Assembly (NCBI GenBank): GCA_942491525.1
Contig: CALOBW010000030.1
Span: 291,029 to 355,028, forward strand
Direction of reading: 5' to 3'
From: an uncultured Thermodesulfobacteriota bacterium
GTDB taxonomy: Bacteria; Desulfobacterota; Desulfomonilia; UBA1062
DNA: 64,000 nt
The notes under the pieces were generated by a model. It was not told the DNA's origin and did no database searches. It was given only the letters and a program-made list of their open reading frames with translations. A program made the translations under genes and the position numbers. Shown piece after piece: positions 3,154-53,371 of the stretch. Numbering within the stretch: position 1 is the first letter of the stretch; every line of letters starts with the position of its first letter.

Positions 3154-3519
3154 TTAGTGATGAGAACAGTCGTGGTGGTCGCAGCCGCCGCCCTGATCAG
3201 TCAGTGAACCGTCGAGCCAGCTCTGGGCGACCTCGCGGGCGATACCCTGACAACCGCGCACAACCTGGATGCCGTTGTTCAGCAGCATGTTGGCTGCGCC
3301 CTGGCCCATGTTGCCGCCCAGCAGGACGCTCACGCCCATCTGGGAGAGGGTCGGAATGATGTTGGACTTGCAGCCGCAGCCCGGCGGCGGGGTCAGCTGT
3401 TCCTCGGCGATAATTGTACCATCCTCAACGGTAACGGTATAGATGGTGAAGGCTTCACAGTGACCAAAGTGGGAATCAACGGCTCCGTCGCGGGAGGGAA
3501 TGGCAATTTTCATGATCAA
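3154..3519 (-). CDS. NifX/NifB-like dinitrogenase FeMo-cofactor-family (DUF-type) small protein
   Basis: This 121-aa protein has MKIAIPSRDG...VDSHFGHCEAFTIYTV and GGNMGQGAANML motifs typical of the NifB/NifX/NafY-like fold common in anaerobes. Confidence 0.65.
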   Translation of the reverse strand: MIMKIAIPSRDGAVDSHFGHCEAFTIYTVTVEDGTIIAEEQLTPPPGCGCKSNIIPTLSQMGVSVLLGGNMGQGAANMLLNNGIQVVRGCQGIAREVAQSWLDGSLTDQGGGCDHHDCSHH

Positions 3520-3579
3520 CTCCTTATTAGTTAGTGAAGACTATCTACACCTGCCAGGAGCGGAATTCAATGCATATAA

Positions 3580-3680
3580 CTATGGGGCCGACTCGCCATT
3601 ACCAGCCGACCCCGATGAAGGCCCCGTCTTGCGTCTTTCGCAATCACGCGGGCCGCGTCAACCAGCTGGTGCGGCCCGTC
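3580..3680 (-). ncRNA. Conserved structured 3'-UTR element, copy 1, downstream of lipoprotein gene 3690..5126
   Basis: On the minus-sense transcript this gives hairpin GGGCCGC-accagcugguugac-GCGGCCC (plus-strand 3650-3677) and hairpin UUGCG-aaaga-CGCAA (3629-3643). The conserved block GACGCAAGACGGGGCC and a distal GGGGCC...GGCCCC pairing (3584-3589 / 3620-3625) follow. All of this recurs with compensatory changes downstream of the paralog (5440..5535). Confidence 0.5.
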
Positions 3681-3689
3681 AGCAGTAGA

Positions 3690-5126
3690 TTAGAATGGGC
3701 CACCCACATGCCACAGGAGCAGACAGGTGGTCATGGGGATGCCGGCAACAAAGTAGTCATAACCGGTATCCAGGGCCATCAGGATATCGATGCCATCCAG
3801 CACTTCAGCAACTTCAGCAGGCATCTCAACCTCTATCCAGCCCAGCTCGGCAAAACCGAGAGCCAGCATCTCAATAATCTCAAAGGTCTCTTCATCATAC
3901 TCTTCAACATTATTGAAATCGATCTTGATCAGCTTGCCGCTCAGCTCACTGTAGGTGAAGGTCAGGGCATGAATCGGAATCCAGACGATCTCGGGCTCAT
4001 AGATCAGAGTTTCAACTTCAGGACGGATCAGCATGGCATCTTCCATAATGGTCATAACACGCACACCATCTTCAAAGACGTTGGTTGTCCGTGCCACCGG
4101 CATGGCGTCATCCAGACAGGGGCTACCACAAGGGCTAAAATGCCCGCCACCCATCAGCAGCGACATGGTCCTGGTCAGCAGACGGCCAGCCTCATCGCGA
4201 ACATATTCATAGATAGTTTTGGGTATCCAGAGAACCGGCGCATCCGGTCCATCGAGCGGGGGATGCGGAATGTGGAATATGGTGCGGGTCTTCTCCTCAC
4301 AGTACTCAGTCTCTGCGCGGTAGACCGGGAATCTGGGCCAGAGTGAACGGTTGAGCGAGGTTTCCTGCACAACCAAACGACCCTTGTCATCATACTCATT
4401 GATCAGAATGTAGTAACCGATCTCAGCCCAGTGGGAAATTGCGGGGTCGAAATTCTCAAAGATGATACCGTCAATATCACCGGCATCATTATACGAGAAG
4501 ACCAGACGGAAAAGCATGCTGTGCAGATTGTGAGGATGGGGTCCCCAATATCCCTCAGCATCAAAGGCCATCTCCTCCTGGCCGCTTTCAACAAAGAGCG
4601 GGGTCAGATCAAAGGTGTATGAGATGAGCCGACCATCATAGCCCATCAATACCTCTCCGGCGGGAACAGGCTCGTCAAAAACCGTCTCAGCAATCGTATG
4701 ATGGATAATGTGCATCAGTATTTCACGAATGCACTCCTGATCATTAAGAACTTCGATAGATCCGACTGTCAGAATTCCCTCTGTCTCGAGAGTTGTCTCC
4801 ATCGTCAAGGTTGCATAGAGCGTTGAACCCAGGAGAACCTCTTCTGGCTCGATTACCTCCAGAACTTCAACTTCAGGATCTACAGGCGCTGGTCCATAGT
4901 CATACCGGCCGATTGAGACGGTCTCTAGAACCATGACACTCTCTAAAACTTCTTCGGGAATAACAGGCTCCTCAGGTTGAGGGCACTCAGGACAAACATC
5001 TTCACCGGCACCTTGACTTTGAGCTGCTAAAGCAAAAGGAATGTAATTATCTTCTTCTTTAGCGCAACCAGATAGCGCTAAGGCTGTGAGGAAGATATAT
5101 AGCAAGGCTGTTGTAAATCGTTTCAT
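3690..5126 (-). CDS. Lipoprotein, paralog A of a tandem pair (unknown function)
   Basis: An AAGGAGG RBS precedes MKRFTTALLYIFLTALALSGC (lipobox LSGC). An acidic low-complexity linker (EED..GAGEDV..PEEPVIPEEV) is followed by a globular region sharing blocks with paralog B (EVLMGYDGRLISYTFDL, ARTTNVFEDGVR, IKIDFNNVEEYDE). Confidence 0.7.
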   Translation of the reverse strand: MKRFTTALLYIFLTALALSGCAKEEDNYIPFALAAQSQGAGEDVCPECPQPEEPVIPEEVLESVMVLETVSIGRYDYGPAPVDPEVEVLEVIEPEEVLLGSTLYATLTMETTLETEGILTVGSIEVLNDQECIREILMHIIHHTIAETVFDEPVPAGEVLMGYDGRLISYTFDLTPLFVESGQEEMAFDAEGYWGPHPHNLHSMLFRLVFSYNDAGDIDGIIFENFDPAISHWAEIGYYILINEYDDKGRLVVQETSLNRSLWPRFPVYRAETEYCEEKTRTIFHIPHPPLDGPDAPVLWIPKTIYEYVRDEAGRLLTRTMSLLMGGGHFSPCGSPCLDDAMPVARTTNVFEDGVRVMTIMEDAMLIRPEVETLIYEPEIVWIPIHALTFTYSELSGKLIKIDFNNVEEYDEETFEIIEMLALGFAELGWIEVEMPAEVAEVLDGIDILMALDTGYDYFVAGIPMTTCLLLWHVGGPF

Positions 5127-5439
5127 GGCGTACCTCCTTGGTGCTACTTATCCTCTTTTCTTGCTTGCGGGGCCTCCTTTAACCGGAGAAAGTTAAGCCT
5201 GACCCGGCAGATGGCAAGGCCAGGAATGCTCTTTTCTGACATTATTCAAAACTACTTTTCAAGGGCGTGAAAAACCGAGTTATTTAAGACAAACTTTTTT
5301 AAGTTTTGGTCTAAAAATGTCCCTTATGATGAAACCCAAAACATAATTAAATCACAACACCCCTGACCCCATTTTTCACATCCCGAGACGGAAAGAAAAA
5401 CTTTGCCATTGGGAAGTCATTTGGGAATAGCTAGATATA

Positions 5440-5535
5440 ACTTGGGGCCAGCAGTTTGAATAGCTGACCCCGTCATATGGCCCCGTCTTGCGTCCTACGC
5501 AACGGACAGAGGCAACCAGCTGTCTCTGCCCCTCA
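5440..5535 (-). ncRNA. Conserved structured 3'-UTR element, copy 2, downstream of lipoprotein gene 5544..6899
   Basis: The architecture matches copy 1: hairpin GGCAGAG-acagcugguugc-CUCUGUC (plus-strand 5505-5530, with a G.U wobble only in the minus sense), hairpin UUGCG-uagga-CGCAA (5488-5502), and the conserved GACGCAAGACGGGGCC plus distal GGGGCC/GGCCCC (5444-5449 / 5479-5484). Confidence 0.5.
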
Positions 5536-5543
5536 TCATCAGA

Positions 5544-6899
5544 TCATAGTCCGATATGACCCAGCAGCCATGAATTAACAACGGGCTGGCTGGCTGCAAA
5601 GTAGTCAAAGGCACCATCGAGCGCCACCAGGATATCAACGTTCTCAATGAAATCGAGCGCATCAACAGGAACTTCCATCTCAACCCAGATCAACTCGGCA
5701 AAACCAAGTGGCAAAAGTTCGGTGGGCTCGAGGGTCATCTCGTCAAATGCAGTCACATTGTTGAAGTCGATCCTGATCAGTTTAGCGGTGATTTCATCAT
5801 AGCTGTAAGTCAGAACATGGAACGGTATCCAAAGGATCTCAATTTCCATTACCTCTTCTACCATAACCTCATGCTCAACTGCCTTGCTCATAATGGTCGA
5901 AATGCGTACACCATCTTCAAACGTATTGGTGGTACGCGCAACCGGGCTGAGCATGCTCAGCTCACAAACCATAGGCTCTTCACCCACCGGACCGGACAGT
6001 AGCGACATGGTCCTGGTCAGCAGACGGCCGGAAACATCGTGAGTATAGTCATAGACAACCTTCCTAGGTCCAGGACCGCCGGCACGCACATAGACCACGC
6101 GCGACTTATCTTCACAGTAGCCGAAGTGAGCTGTATAGACATCCAGGGTCTCGATCTTGATCAGATTAACCTCAACAGCATTGACCTTGACAGTTTTGGA
6201 CATGATCAAAGCCTGCTGCATCAAGATACGGCCCTCGCCTTCTTCCTCATAGGTGTTGATCAACATGTAGGTGAGCAGCTCCGACCAGTTGGATGTCCGC
6301 GGTACAAAGTGGTCAACGATTACGGAGTTGATATGACCCATGGCGTCATAGGTGAAGCGTAGCCGGAAAATGGCACTGAAGAGATCTTCATCTTCTTCAG
6401 CCACATTCAAAGGCCCATTCCAGAAGGCGGTAAGGTCAACGGTATATGAAATCAGGCGACCATCATAGCCCATATGAACTTCACCGGCGGGGATGGGACC
6501 TTCAAGCTCGGTCTCTTCCGGAAGCATGAGACCCAGCAGGCTTAGAACGATTTCATCGGCCAACTCACTGATCTCCAACATGCCAATTGTGCGGATAACA
6601 CCGGCACCAAAGGTGGTTTCAAGTCCGAGAGTCGCAATAATTGTCTCGAGAGGATCCTCACCATAGATGCCAAAATTGATGGCATCCAACACCAAAGCCG
6701 GCTCGGTCACCTCTTCATCGTCACCATCACCATTGTCACCTCCGCCATTCAGATCATCGCCGCCGACATCTTCACCGCCGGCACCTAAGCCCGATAGGGC
6801 AATAGCGTATGGGATATAGTTATCTTCTTCTCTGGTACAACCCGATAGAGCCAGGCTTACTAGGAAGAGTACCACCAAGATTGTTGTAAATCTTTTCAT
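5544..6899 (-). CDS. Lipoprotein, paralog B of the tandem pair (unknown function)
   Basis: An AAGGAGG RBS precedes MKRFTTILVVLFLVSLALSGC, followed by a Gly/Asp-rich acidic linker (GGEDVGGDDLNGGGDNGDGDDEE). Conserved blocks are shared with paralog A (EVHMGYDGRLISYTVDL, ARTTNTFEDGVR, IRIDFNNVTAFDE). Confidence 0.7.
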   Translation of the reverse strand: MKRFTTILVVLFLVSLALSGCTREEDNYIPYAIALSGLGAGGEDVGGDDLNGGGDNGDGDDEEVTEPALVLDAINFGIYGEDPLETIIATLGLETTFGAGVIRTIGMLEISELADEIVLSLLGLMLPEETELEGPIPAGEVHMGYDGRLISYTVDLTAFWNGPLNVAEEDEDLFSAIFRLRFTYDAMGHINSVIVDHFVPRTSNWSELLTYMLINTYEEEGEGRILMQQALIMSKTVKVNAVEVNLIKIETLDVYTAHFGYCEDKSRVVYVRAGGPGPRKVVYDYTHDVSGRLLTRTMSLLSGPVGEEPMVCELSMLSPVARTTNTFEDGVRISTIMSKAVEHEVMVEEVMEIEILWIPFHVLTYSYDEITAKLIRIDFNNVTAFDEMTLEPTELLPLGFAELIWVEMEVPVDALDFIENVDILVALDGAFDYFAASQPVVNSWLLGHIGL

Positions 6900-7183
6900 G
6901 TCGTACCTCCTTGCTGCTAGTTGTAACTCACATCTTGTTCACGGGGCCTCCTTTGAACGGTTTATTGTAAGGACGTAAAGCCTGATAACAAGGGCTTTGC
7001 CGGCATTTTTCCAGAATCGAAACCGATGCAATGCAAGGGTTCAATAACAAGAGTTATTCAAGGCAAACTTTTAATATGTTTTTTCAACAAAAATCATTAA
7101 TGTCGCAAACCAGAGCATAATAAATCAATTTCTTGCCGCCCACGACTCAAAACAAGGGCAGACCAACCTGCAAAGAGAGAAAA

Positions 7184-8314
7184 CTATTTCATACCGAAAA
7201 GCGGCTGCAGCCAGGTAATCCGGCGCACAAAAAACTCAAAGATCAGCATGATCAAAACAAATGCCACGACCGCCAGCAGGATGAATTTAAACCCGGGATC
7301 CAGCGGCCAGCTGCGCATCACAAACCCCAGACCGACAATCACGGTCTGATGCAGAATATAAAACGGCAGCACGGCCCGCGAGGCATACTCCAGCACCCCA
7401 TTACGACCCTTCAGGTAGCGGCTGCCATAGCCCAAAATCGCCACCAGCCAGCACCAGGAATTAAAAGGCAGCAGGCTGCCCCAGAAGAGATAACTGATTC
7501 CGGCGCCCAACTGGCGGTATATACCACTCAAATAGAGCGCCAGAGCCAGACAGGTTATCAGCAGAGCCAGCCCGGCGGCCAGCCGGCGTTCCGACTCCAT
7601 GGCCAGCCTGAAGCGCATATCCAGCCCGACAACGTAGCCGTTGATAAAAAAACCCAGATAGACCGGCAGGGCCCAGCCGCCGAAATCCCTGATCCCCACG
7701 CCCCCCGGCTGCAGGTCAACCAGCAGCTGCACCGCGATCAGAGGCAGCGCCATGATCAAAACCCCGCCGCGGTAGCCGCTGAAATCTGCCAGCGCATCAA
7801 TCCGATAGGTGCGCTGCTGCAGACTCAAAAAGAACGGCAACAGCAGAAGGCTGAATATAAACAGAACCTCCAGATACCAGAGGTGCAGCCCCATCCAGGC
7901 AAAATTGCCGCCAAAAGCGTAAAACCCTTGAAAGTAGTGCGGATAGAATGACCAGAATGAACCGCTGAACTCTCCGCCAACCACCCGCTCGATCCAGACC
8001 TGCAGCGGCGCAATCACCACCAGTGAGCCGAACACAAGCGGCACCAGCAGCCGGCGGCTGCGTTCGATGATAAACCCGCGCAGGCTGCGTTTCTGAAGCG
8101 AAGCGGAGATGCTGATGGCCGAGAGCACAAAAAAGAGCGGCATAATCCACTGGGCCAGCACCATCACCATGATTGTTGCCCAGCCAGTCAGCTGATCATT
8201 CTTGACGTGCCAACCCTCATGGTTGAAAAATCGGGCACAGTGGAAAACAAAGATTACAAGCATGGCCATGACCCTCAGCCAGTCAACATCGTTACGTCTC
8301 GATAAATCTTGCAT
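7184..8314 (-). CDS. Acyltransferase family 3 (OafA/YrhL-like) membrane O-acyltransferase
   Basis: This 376-aa polytopic protein starts DVDWLRVMAMLVIFVFHCARFF, the acyltransferase_3 signature, and has about 10 predicted TM helices. Confidence 0.75.
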   Translation of the reverse strand: MQDLSRRNDVDWLRVMAMLVIFVFHCARFFNHEGWHVKNDQLTGWATIMVMVLAQWIMPLFFVLSAISISASLQKRSLRGFIIERSRRLLVPLVFGSLVVIAPLQVWIERVVGGEFSGSFWSFYPHYFQGFYAFGGNFAWMGLHLWYLEVLFIFSLLLLPFFLSLQQRTYRIDALADFSGYRGGVLIMALPLIAVQLLVDLQPGGVGIRDFGGWALPVYLGFFINGYVVGLDMRFRLAMESERRLAAGLALLITCLALALYLSGIYRQLGAGISYLFWGSLLPFNSWCWLVAILGYGSRYLKGRNGVLEYASRAVLPFYILHQTVIVGLGFVMRSWPLDPGFKFILLAVVAFVLIMLIFEFFVRRITWLQPLFGMK

Positions 8315-32247: not shown

Positions 32248-32256
32248 CCAAATCAA

Positions 32257-32284
32257 GGGGAACCAGACGGTTCCCCTTTTTTCT
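32257..32284 (+). terminator. Rho-independent terminator GGGGAACC-agac-GGTTCCCC-TTTTTTTCT
   Basis: A perfect 8-bp stem and a 7-U run lie 9 nt after the stop at 32247. Confidence 0.7.
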
Positions 32285-33461: not shown

Positions 33462-33484
33462 AAAAAGGCACCCTTTGCGGGTGC
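33458..33484 (-). terminator. Terminator between convergent genes: GGCACCC-tttgc-GGGTGCC flanked by A8 on the plus strand (U-run for minus-strand msrAB)
   Basis: A perfect 7-bp stem is present. In the minus sense a U7 run follows the hairpin, and the plus-sense tail is weaker. Confidence 0.6.
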
Positions 33485-33529
33485 CATAAAGAGGAGTAAT
33501 GCTTAACTGTACCTATTCAGTCGCCGGTG

Positions 33530-46460: not shown

Positions 46461-47630
46461 CTAGATATACTGAATAATTGTCTCTTTCAGGTAACGCTCT
46501 TCAAGCGTCGCCATGATGCGTTTGATGATGTTGCGCCTGATCTCCAGATCGAGCGGCAGATTGGGATCCTGATGGGCATCATTGATGCGCGTGCCCACCA
46601 GAAACTCGATATGGTCGCTGTCCAGCAGCAGATTGGCCAGCTTGCCGGCCGGATCATCCGGAATAGTCCCCTGCTCCAGATACTGGGCCATGCGCGTCAG
46701 CGTGAGGATGCCCTCGGTCACCAAATCGAGCCCCTCCATCTCGGAGAGCGGCGGCAGATCGCCGAAGCCGCTCAGCACGGTCTGCATGTCGCGGTTAAGC
46801 TCGCGGCCCACAATGTTGGCCGTGGTGCCGCCGCAGATCGCCTTGCGCCCTTCAAAGTGGTCCAGCTTGGTGGCAATCTCACGGTCGCGGCTCTGATCAT
46901 AGGGCGGACCCGAAAGCACCAAGGTGCGCCGAGGCTTCCTGAAGTAGAAGACCGCGCAGGTGATGTCATCCATGGCCCGGCACTGCGGCTCATGGCGCTC
47001 GGCCTCATCCACAATGGCCTGGGCCAGCTCGCGCCCCGAGATGTTGCTGTCCTTGGCCACCAGCTGCTCAACAAAGCTGGAGCAGCCCTCGACGCGCCAG
47101 CCCAACTTCCAGCGGTCGCTGCCCAGGCCGGCCTGGGAGACGCCGTCCGAAAAGACGATCAGGCGGTCCTCGGGCCGGGTGCAGATCTCGGAGACCTGCA
47201 GGGCGCGGTCCTTCCAGCGCGCCGTCATCATGGTGCGGCGGCTGATGTCCACGGCCTTACCGTCGCGGATCAGGATGTAGTTGGGGTTGCCCTGCTCCAC
47301 GATGCGGGTCTTGCCGTGGATGATGCAGTCCACGATCGTGAAGGTGGCATAGGATATCTTGCGCACCTGGCAGATGGGCAGCGAGTCCATGATGACCTCG
47401 CTGGCGCCCACAATGTTGCGGTTGGCCGCCGCAAACTTGAGCGCCATGGTGCCGGTCATGTTGGCCAGGATGTTGGCCTTGACCCCGCTGCCCAGACCGT
47501 CCGAAAGCACCGCGATGATGCGGTCCTCGGCCGGAATCTTGCGCGAGAAGAAGGCGTCGCCGCAGATGTTCTGGGAGTGCTTGTGACGCTGGGCGCAGTC
47601 AACCTCGACGAAGAGCGAACTGGTCAGCAT
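46461..47630 (-). CDS. PP2C-type (SpoIIE/RsbU-like) serine/threonine phosphatase
   Basis: The PPM metal-binding Asp blocks are present (CGDAFF; VLSDGLGSG; VFSDGV; DDITC). Its start overlaps the HydS stop by 1 nt. Confidence 0.75.
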   Translation of the reverse strand: MLTSSLFVEVDCAQRHKHSQNICGDAFFSRKIPAEDRIIAVLSDGLGSGVKANILANMTGTMALKFAAANRNIVGASEVIMDSLPICQVRKISYATFTIVDCIIHGKTRIVEQGNPNYILIRDGKAVDISRRTMMTARWKDRALQVSEICTRPEDRLIVFSDGVSQAGLGSDRWKLGWRVEGCSSFVEQLVAKDSNISGRELAQAIVDEAERHEPQCRAMDDITCAVFYFRKPRRTLVLSGPPYDQSRDREIATKLDHFEGRKAICGGTTANIVGRELNRDMQTVLSGFGDLPPLSEMEGLDLVTEGILTLTRMAQYLEQGTIPDDPAGKLANLLLDSDHIEFLVGTRINDAHQDPNLPLDLEIRRNIIKRIMATLEERYLKETIIQYI

Positions 47631-53303: not shown

Positions 53304-53339
53304 CAAAAAAGCCCTGTTCAATCGCAGATTGAACAGGGC
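53304..53339 (-). terminator. Rho-independent terminator of the hypB-X-hypA operon
   Basis: An 11-bp perfect stem GCCCTGTTCAA/TTGAACAGGGC with a 7-nt loop is followed, in the minus sense, by U6GU. Confidence 0.7.
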
Positions 53340-53371
53340 TGGTAATTTTCTCTGCCGGCGGGGCAGCTAAC

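Follow-up and report, generated by a model that had tools for sequence, protein, structure and literature searches.

The DNA analyzed here is a stretch of 64,000 nucleotides (nt) from the genome of an uncultured Thermodesulfobacteriota bacterium (GenBank assembly GCA_942491525.1, contig CALOBW010000030.1), which is called the window below and in whose coordinates positions are given. On its minus strand, an element of ~110 nt stands behind each of two tandem lipoprotein genes, here termed gene 1 and gene 2, and begins in both paralogues at the first base past the stop codon. The two proteins share 40% amino acid identity (E = 8e-101), and both begin with MKRFTT...LALSGC, i.e. a signal peptide and lipobox. 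All genes from 8314 down to 1916 are co-oriented, and the two copies of the element occupy two intergenic gaps among them; a NifX-like gene lies 71 nt downstream of copy 1, and gene 1 itself lies ~317 nt downstream of copy 2. The whole unit, consisting of upstream region, leader, coding sequence and 3′ element, is a tandem duplicate.

Conserved blocks are collinear in the two copies in the order of lead-in, hairpin 1 (H1), hairpin 2 (H2), an invariant 16-mer, hairpin 3 (H3) and tail (Table 1). The lead-in TCTNNTGNTGA is a conserved 11-nt segment between the stop codon and H1, which begins 12 nt past the stop codon, and the H1 loop contains the invariant 10-mer CAGCTGGTTG. The 16-mer GACGCAAGACGGGGCC begins with the final two bases of the H2 loop, continues through the 3′ strand of that hairpin and ends in an unpaired invariant linker, GACGGGGCC. 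Directly after H3, both copies carry A(U)AGUUAUAU in RNA, corresponding to A(T)AGTTATAT in DNA, with no U-run. A first-pass annotation of this DNA had described the same architecture behind both genes and the absence of a U-tract; the strings that it quoted do lie there on the minus strand, the shared architecture was borne out, and the place of the U-tract is indeed taken by the conserved A(U)AGUUAUAU. No copy was present upstream of gene 2, whereas gene 1 is followed by one although the next gene does not encode a lipoprotein; by its position, the element is therefore part of the 3′ end of the gene unit and not of the 5′ region of the next gene.

Table 1. Positions of the element, its parts and the associated lipoprotein genes in the window (bp, base pairs; aa, amino acids; ORF, open reading frame)
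Feature	Positions	Strand	Description and basis
Element copy 1, base after stop codon to end of AGTTATAT tail	3574..3689	(-)	alignments; nhmmer E 1.5e-35; covariance model 114 bits
Element copy 2, whole conserved stretch	5435..5543	(-)	alignments; nhmmer E 2.1e-32; covariance model 103 bits
H1 copy 1	3650..3677	(-)	GGGCCGC/GCGGCCC, 7 bp (8 with flanking C-G), 14-nt loop ACCAGCUGGUUGAC
H1 copy 2	5504..5531	(-)	GGGCAGA(G)/(C)UCUGUCC, 12-nt loop ACAGCUGGUUGC
H1-loop 10-mer CAGCTGGTTG, copy 1	3659..3668	(-)	invariant
H1-loop 10-mer CAGCTGGTTG, copy 2	5513..5522	(-)	invariant
H2 copy 1	3629..3643	(-)	UUGCG-AAAGA-CGCAA; stem same in both copies
H2 copy 2	5488..5502	(-)	UUGCG-UAGGA-CGCAA
Invariant 16-mer GACGCAAGACGGGGCC, copy 1	3620..3635	(-)	pattern match, consensus structure
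Invariant 16-mer GACGCAAGACGGGGCC, copy 2	5479..5494	(-)	pattern match
H3 copy 1	3584..3613	(-)	GGGGUCGGCU / AGUCGGCCCC, 10 bp including U.G and G.U, 10-nt loop, −21.3 kcal/mol
H3 copy 2	5444..5471	(-)	GGGGUCAGC / GCUGGCCCC, 9 bp, 10-nt loop, −17.1 kcal/mol
Conserved tail AUAGUUAUAU after H3, copy 1	3574..3583	(-)	not a U-tract; absent from terminator-scan list
Conserved tail AAGUUAUAU after H3, copy 2	5435..5443	(-)	absent from terminator-scan list
5′-leader block AAAGGAGGCCCCG, gene 1	5168..5180	(-)	upstream-region comparison
5′-leader block AAAGGAGGCCCCG, gene 2	6942..6954	(-)	upstream-region comparison
Lipoprotein gene 1	3690..5126	(-)	478 aa, lipobox LSGC, stop TAA at 3690-3692; ORF list
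Lipoprotein gene 2	5544..6899	(-)	451 aa, lipobox LSGC, stop TGA at 5544-5546 (protein P0002); ORF list

Conservation, pairing and strand

Identity between the two copies was 72% (81 of 112 aligned columns), whereas 4-fold degenerate sites at conserved codons of the same two genes were 50% identical (n = 68; 30% expected from composition), a difference corresponding to z of about 4.7 in a normal approximation to the binomial that was calculated by hand without any tool. The adjoining last 60 nt of coding sequence were 52% identical and similarity was lost beyond the tail, poorly conserved sequence thus bordering the element on both sides. By this comparison, the similarity of the copies is not due to chance, and the element is a conserved island that changes more slowly than synonymous sites. 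Inside the island, the unpaired apical 10-mer of H1 and the 9-nt linker were invariant, whereas the loops of H2 and H3 and the second linker varied. Such a pattern fits sequence-specific recognition on top of structure, and the alternation of invariant blocks with freely varying loops makes the element a mosaic, unlike a single continuous conversion tract.

The structural alignment of the two copies was built by hand, and MAFFT gave the same result once the sequences were trimmed to the end of H3. In the minus-sense consensus calculated by RNAalifold, the three local hairpins H1, H2 and H3 were formed with pair probabilities of about 1 (−38.0 kcal/mol), and no conserved alternative pairing exceeded 0.05 in the alignment ensemble except for small extensions. 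All 21 consensus pairs (7 in H1, 5 in H2 and 9 in H3) were retained in both copies, with 3 double changes, 2 changes between G-C and G.U and 0 disruptions; 42 of 42 pair cells were standard, compared with 32–50% paired when the partners were slid by 1–3 columns. In H1, 4 of the 7 pairs were identical between the copies, 2 were double changes from C-G to A-U and 1 was a change from G-C to G.U, so that the description of these stems as completely different in the first-pass annotation was overstated once they are compared in register. The 5 pairs of H2 were all invariant, hence uninformative for covariation. H3 has the general form GGGGUC(G/A)GC ... GC(U/C)GGCCCC (9–10 bp), and its 9 consensus pairs included 1 double change from G-C to A-U, 1 change from G.U to G-C and 1 common U.G. 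The complementarity between GGGGCC and GGCCCC that had been proposed to close the element distally does exist, but the local hairpin H3, which excludes the distal pairing, is the better reading and was preferred by RNAalifold with a pair probability of about 1. In the H1 loop, the invariant CAGCUGGUUG may additionally form a small modelled apical stem, CA(G)/(U)UG (C-G and A-U around GCUGGU), so that H1 would consist of a lower stem that varies, an internal loop and an apex that is conserved.

The strand of the structure was read from its wobble pairs. A G.U in H1 of copy 2, a U.G in H3 of both copies and a G.U in H3 of copy 1 are wobbles in the minus sense and become A.C in the plus sense; the argument drawn earlier from the first of these was right, and the H3 wobbles strengthen it. 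The plus-sense consensus lost H3 and reached −31.8 kcal/mol (RNAalifold), and single-sequence z-scores failed to separate the strands (minus −2.4, plus −2.5 and −2.8). The wobbles fix the strand and not the molecule, as the same logic holds for single-stranded DNA.

How strongly the pairs have been kept was evaluated against several nulls. With the structure fixed, 8 random stem substitutions kept all 21 pairs in 3.5e-5 of trials, and at least 3 double changes arose in 5e-4 of random-substitution trials; these two figures are post hoc, since the three hairpins were read from the same two sequences as were tested. The consensus energy was compared with nulls for each of which the structure was predicted anew: of 600 alignments in which substitutions had been placed at random or columns shuffled, none reached the observed value, and 1.2% of nulls did so when the variable positions were kept and the bases randomized. 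With n = 2, pairing thus appears to be kept better than chance at roughly the 1% level, which is suggestive, not conclusive.

Searches for known families, further copies and homologues

That the element had not been recognized as a known riboswitch or terminator family agreed with a cmscan run against Rfam 15, which yielded 0 matches at gathering thresholds in the whole window; at E ≤ 10, the region 3300-7200 gave 7 weak chance matches, none of which overlapped 3574-3689 or 5435-5543. Within the window, the 16-mer GACGCAAGACGGGGCC at up to 3 mismatches was found just in the two copies, and neither nhmmer --max nor a covariance model of the element (R1) run with filters off detected a third copy or any copy upstream of gene 2. 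The next covariance-model match (46743-46831, 19 bits) was a GC-rich coding stretch without any conserved block and was discarded. A common dispersed repeat had been named as a finding that would undo the idea of an element tied to these genes; within the window such a repeat was ruled out, the 16-mer, nhmmer and the covariance model all giving two copies only.

Outside the window, exact patterns were scanned for. The H1 loop combined with the core had 4 matches in 185,579 representative genomes (the genome of origin not being among them), all in unrelated coding sequence; the 16-mer followed by GGGG had 12 chance matches in the metagenomes of the Joint Genome Institute (JGI), and the 16-mer had 7 in viral contigs. 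None of these genome, metagenome and viral matches scored with covariance model R1. BLAST against plasmids and phages gave nothing meaningful, and in the literature no occurrence of the core 12-mer or 14-mer was found, the 10-mer appearing only in primers and miR-133a contexts.

The lipoproteins had few relatives. Four close members of the family were found among 5.8 billion clusters, two of which are the window proteins; the others are P0004, encoded on the same 512-kb contig outside the window, and P0003, on a 28-kb contig. When 1.84 billion representatives were scanned in full with HMMER, just three distant proteins came up in addition, and the only other DNA record found for the locus was a Logan contig 100% identical to the window. 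At the locus of the nearest distant homologue, P0005 (GCA_964456565.1), no trace of the element was present, and the locus of P0006 gave no covariance-model score. The 3′ flank of the P0005 gene has instead a terminator-like hairpin, GGGGGAGG-GTTAAA-CCTCCCCC-TTTCAT; this plain hairpin terminator follows the stop codon (4594-4660 of that locus, L025), and its position, the same as that of the element, is consistent with a 3′-end-forming role there. A further predicted lipoprotein gene begins 70 nt downstream; therefore, the P0005 locus also has a tandem lipoprotein arrangement. A perfect sigma-54-type TGGCAC-N5-TTGCT was also seen at this locus (2940-2955), ~50 nt upstream of the start codon.

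Readings of the element

The element is probably a structured RNA tail of the lipoprotein mRNAs. More specifically, we tentatively read it as a lineage-specific, cis-encoded structured module of the 3′ untranslated region (3′-UTR), whose hairpins would both delimit and protect the 3′ end and whose invariant unpaired parts would dock a protein or RNA, with a probability of roughly 0.42. The data show how the element is built, on which strand it lies, that it is conserved beyond the level of synonymous sites and that both copies retain its pairing, whereas we infer that it acts as RNA and has the function proposed here. The duplicated transcription unit would run from the promoter region through leader and coding sequence to the 3′ element, which could form its three local hairpins as the RNA is made. 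H3, with the help of H1, would then mark where the message ends and shield it there from exonucleases that degrade in the 3′→5′ direction, and the AU-rich tail might be a weak or factor-assisted stop or a processing point. A trans-acting protein or RNA would recognize two sites, CAGCUGGUUG at the apex of H1 and GACGGGGCC in the linker. If true, this would be a new structured 3′-UTR RNA motif from a poorly sampled anaerobic lineage, and, as a module common to paralogous surface lipoproteins, it could show how such families are co-regulated; in bacteria, few conserved 3′-UTR elements whose unpaired segments are sequence-specific have been described so far. As a two-copy candidate in one genome, the element leaves current views unchanged, and we regard it as a candidate structured 3′-UTR or intergenic hairpin element of no described family, modest and unproven as a new motif.

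Several results weigh against this reading. When RNAalifold re-predicted the structure for each null, 22–37% of nulls showed at least 3 double-changed pairs, and the column-shuffle control was reached in 51 of 500 shuffles; there are just two copies, from one genome, and the compensatory count is not significant with a structure defined post hoc. The different stems under a common loop had been called a classic sign of selection on structure. This stood as far as the pairs are retained and the consensus energy lies at ~1%, but it did not stand for the compensatory count from two sequences. Furthermore, the minimum-free-energy fold of the single sequences is not the three-hairpin fold. In single-sequence folds, the pair probability of H1 was ~0.5 per copy, the GGGG run of the 16-mer being an alternative partner for its 3′ strand, and those of H2 and H3 were 0.64–0.97 and 0.61–1.0, respectively; the register of the competing pairings differs between the two copies. 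Read as DNA, the arms of H2 make a perfect palindrome around a spacer that varies, a layout that would suit a dimeric DNA-binding protein equally well. Finally, H3 fails as an intrinsic terminator with a short loop and a U-run (at least 5 of 8), having a 10-nt loop and the tails AUAGUUAUAU and AAGUUAUAU, and it was not listed in a terminator consensus scan of the window.

On the other hand, H3 does fit the more general form of an intrinsic terminator, a stable GC-rich stem-loop at the end of a unit (9–10 bp; energies in Table 1), and the P0005 gene has a terminator hairpin in the same place. It differs from intrinsic terminators in being preceded by two more conserved hairpins and in its loop length and missing U-run. 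H3 thus appears not to be a canonical intrinsic terminator, and is possibly a weak or factor-assisted one. Textbook U-run terminators were listed by the same consensus scan elsewhere in the window (32255-32278, 33467-33485 and 53310-53340, two of them bidirectional), and therefore the organism uses canonical terminators at other places. The proposed structured tail also resembles 3′-terminal or intercistronic stabilizers such as the stem-loops of repetitive extragenic palindromic (REP) sequences and bacterial interspersed mosaic elements (BIME) behind malE of Escherichia coli, or the intercistronic hairpins of Rhodobacter puf, hairpins of a kind that should stop exonucleases moving 3′→5′ and thereby lead to differing levels of neighbouring cistrons. 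Like these, the element places GC-rich hairpins directly behind a coding region among co-oriented genes, without a U-tract. REPs, however, are short single palindromes with tens to hundreds of copies per genome, whereas the element combines three hairpins with unpaired segments that do not vary, and the two copies seen in the 64 kb each accompany one of the paralogues. Of the REP hallmarks, neither a GTAG-type head nor, among 16 window proteins scanned, a transposase was found.

Among the rival explanations, the foremost, although still unlikely, is a riboregulator. The leaders of both genes start with the invariant block AAAGGAGGCCCCG, in which GGAGG resembles a further Shine-Dalgarno sequence, ~45 nt ahead of the actual ribosome-binding site (CAAGGAGGTACG), and whose GGCCCCG is the exact complement of CGGGGCC in the unpaired linker of the 3′ 16-mer. 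Pairing of the two, either in cis with the 5′ leader or by a small RNA (sRNA) released from the 3′-UTR (H2, linker and H3), would provide family-wide feedback. Such behaviour has precedents in the 3′-UTR-derived sRNAs CpxQ and SroC of enterobacteria and in the pairing of the icaR 3′-UTR with its Shine-Dalgarno sequence in Staphylococcus aureus, which the element resembles in its conserved single-stranded stretch before a terminal hairpin and in the complementary GGCCCCG by a GGAGG in the leaders. The linker is invariant though unpaired in the consensus, a perfect complement of at least 7 nt between the conserved 5′ and 3′ blocks occurred in 3.3% of shuffles, and in copy 1 the pairing could be extended by eye to 10–11 bp over GGAGG. 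However, copy 2 gives just 7–8 bp, whole-region RNAduplex energies were reached by 3–13% of shuffles, and, since the 3′ strand of H3 likewise reads GGCCCC, the match may have arisen simply from the richness of the stems in GC; the element also differs from the known cases in this marginal complementarity of 7–11 bp and in lacking the U-tail usual in Hfq-type sRNAs. The leader GGCCCCG, the sole candidate partner for the invariant linker, is accordingly a weak lead, marginal and post hoc. Improbable to a greater degree is the fuller proposal of an undescribed riboregulatory module that would co-ordinate RHS-like surface lipoproteins, in which H1 would dock an RNA-binding protein through its apical loop, the linker CGGGGCC would pair with the leader GGCCCCG in cis or trans, and the messages of the paralogues would sense each other. 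No more credence was given to a conditional terminator or read-through switch, in which transcription would be stopped at H3 in a regulated manner, between gene 2 and gene 1 and before the NifX-like and serine dehydratase genes further on. Whether H3 forms would depend on competing pairings, the candidates being GGGGCC of the 16-mer with either GGCCCC or the 3′ strand of H1, and the H1 loop with the 5′ strand of H3. The co-orientation of the genes around the two gaps would suit such a switch, and single-sequence folds of both copies do show competing pairings with the GGGGCC run, but these alternatives are out of register between the copies and none exceeds p = 0.05 in the alignment ensemble. 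The missing U-tract behind H3 speaks against it as well, and gene 1 has its own conserved upstream region like that of gene 2, suggesting separate promoters.

The remaining two explanations do without an RNA function. A role at the DNA level, which ranks behind the riboregulator and is likewise doubtful, could be that of a homology box for recombination or cassette exchange, for which the downstream homology sequences of Borrelia vsp/vlp offer a comparison, of protein-binding palindromes (CAGCTG, TTGCG-N5-CGCAA), or of a mobile or REP-like repeat with few copies. In favour of such a role, the gene units are conserved at both ends but strongly diverged in the coding part between them, the arms of the perfect palindrome H2 are invariant around a spacer that varies, CAGCTG is palindromic too, and the search of the genome of origin for copies was confined to the 64-kb window. 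Against this stand the arms of H1 and H3, which vary with compensation while the centre of H1 is conserved, the opposite of a typical protein-binding inverted repeat, as well as the strand specificity of the wobble pairs. In addition, no other copy was found in 64 kb, no true match in the 185,579 genomes, JGI metagenomes, viral contigs, plasmids or phages, and no transposase or integrase among 16 window ORFs scanned. Least probable of all is that the element has no function of its own and is residual similarity from the duplication, or a gene-conversion patch that contains ancestral terminator-like hairpins. The whole unit is clearly a tandem duplicate, and apparent compensatory pairs are common in two-sequence nulls, both of which speak for this explanation; it is less easily reconciled with 72% identity against 50% at the 4-fold sites of the same genes, with an island bounded by poorly conserved sequence and composed of invariant blocks and variable loops, and with the 8 stem substitutions, 0 of which break a pair.

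Other element types were compared and rejected. H1 resembles selenocysteine insertion sequence (SECIS) and iron-responsive hairpins in its covarying lower stem, internal loop and invariant apex CA(G)-CUGG-(U)UG, and its start 12 nt after the stop codon is a spacing like that of bacterial SECIS, but its loop sequence matches neither and has no Rfam match. Coding, read-through or SECIS function was rejected in view of the UAA stop of gene 1, a 5-nt indel between H1 and H2 that breaks the shared frame, and the absence of a conserved downstream peptide. The tail GTTATAT does not fit the GTTRRRY of integron attC sites, and no RYYYAAC was present on the 5′ side; in the surroundings, no integrase was found among the scanned neighbour proteins, and each gene has its own conserved upstream region. 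An operator for the downstream gene was discarded on account of the different distances (71 and ~317 nt) and the different downstream genes, and an antisense promoter from the conserved plus-strand TATAAC because neither copy had a usable −35 or TGn by eye. As for a Chi-like function of GCTGGTTG, CAG/CTG-rich words are generally abundant, and GCTGGTTG itself had just 9 occurrences in the window. Words at most 1 mismatch from CAGCTGGTTG occurred 30 times in the window versus ~6 expected from dinucleotide shuffles, 24 of the 30 being on the minus strand; this bias fits the G-rich minus strand (plus-strand GC skew −0.07), and the excess seems to reflect codon and word usage, not a specific signal.

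The lipoprotein genes

Neither lipoprotein had a match in Pfam or NCBIfam. Degenerate YD/RHS-like repeats, e.g. YDGRLISYT and YDYTHDVSGRLLTRT, were seen in the proteins, and an AlphaFold (AF2) model consisted almost entirely of long beta hairpins (predicted local distance difference test 62, predicted template-modelling (TM) score 0.67); in a Foldseek search with this model, the top matches were RHS-repeat shells, with low TM scores. On this modelling, the gene 1 product is a member of an orphan family with YD/RHS-like beta repeats. The best-conserved DNA inside the two coding regions is a stretch of 59 bp (4155-4213 and 5997-6055) with 85% identity, which encodes GRLLTRTMSLL and whose conservation equals that of the 3′ element.

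The public protein of gene 1, P0001, has 414 aa and begins at Met65 of the 478-aa ORF. Because this ORF includes what all four family members have in common, namely a conserved ribosome-binding site, a signal peptide and a lipobox, the deposited start of P0001 is probably too far downstream.

Upstream of both genes, a block AAAAGTTTG[T/C]CTT[A/G]AATAACTC was observed ~150–170 nt before the start codons (5277-5298 and 7051-7072, minus strand), with a common CCCTTG slightly downstream of it. At the P0005 locus, AAAAGTTTCC was present at a similar distance (about 2823), and the upstream block could serve the lipoprotein family as a promoter or regulator element.

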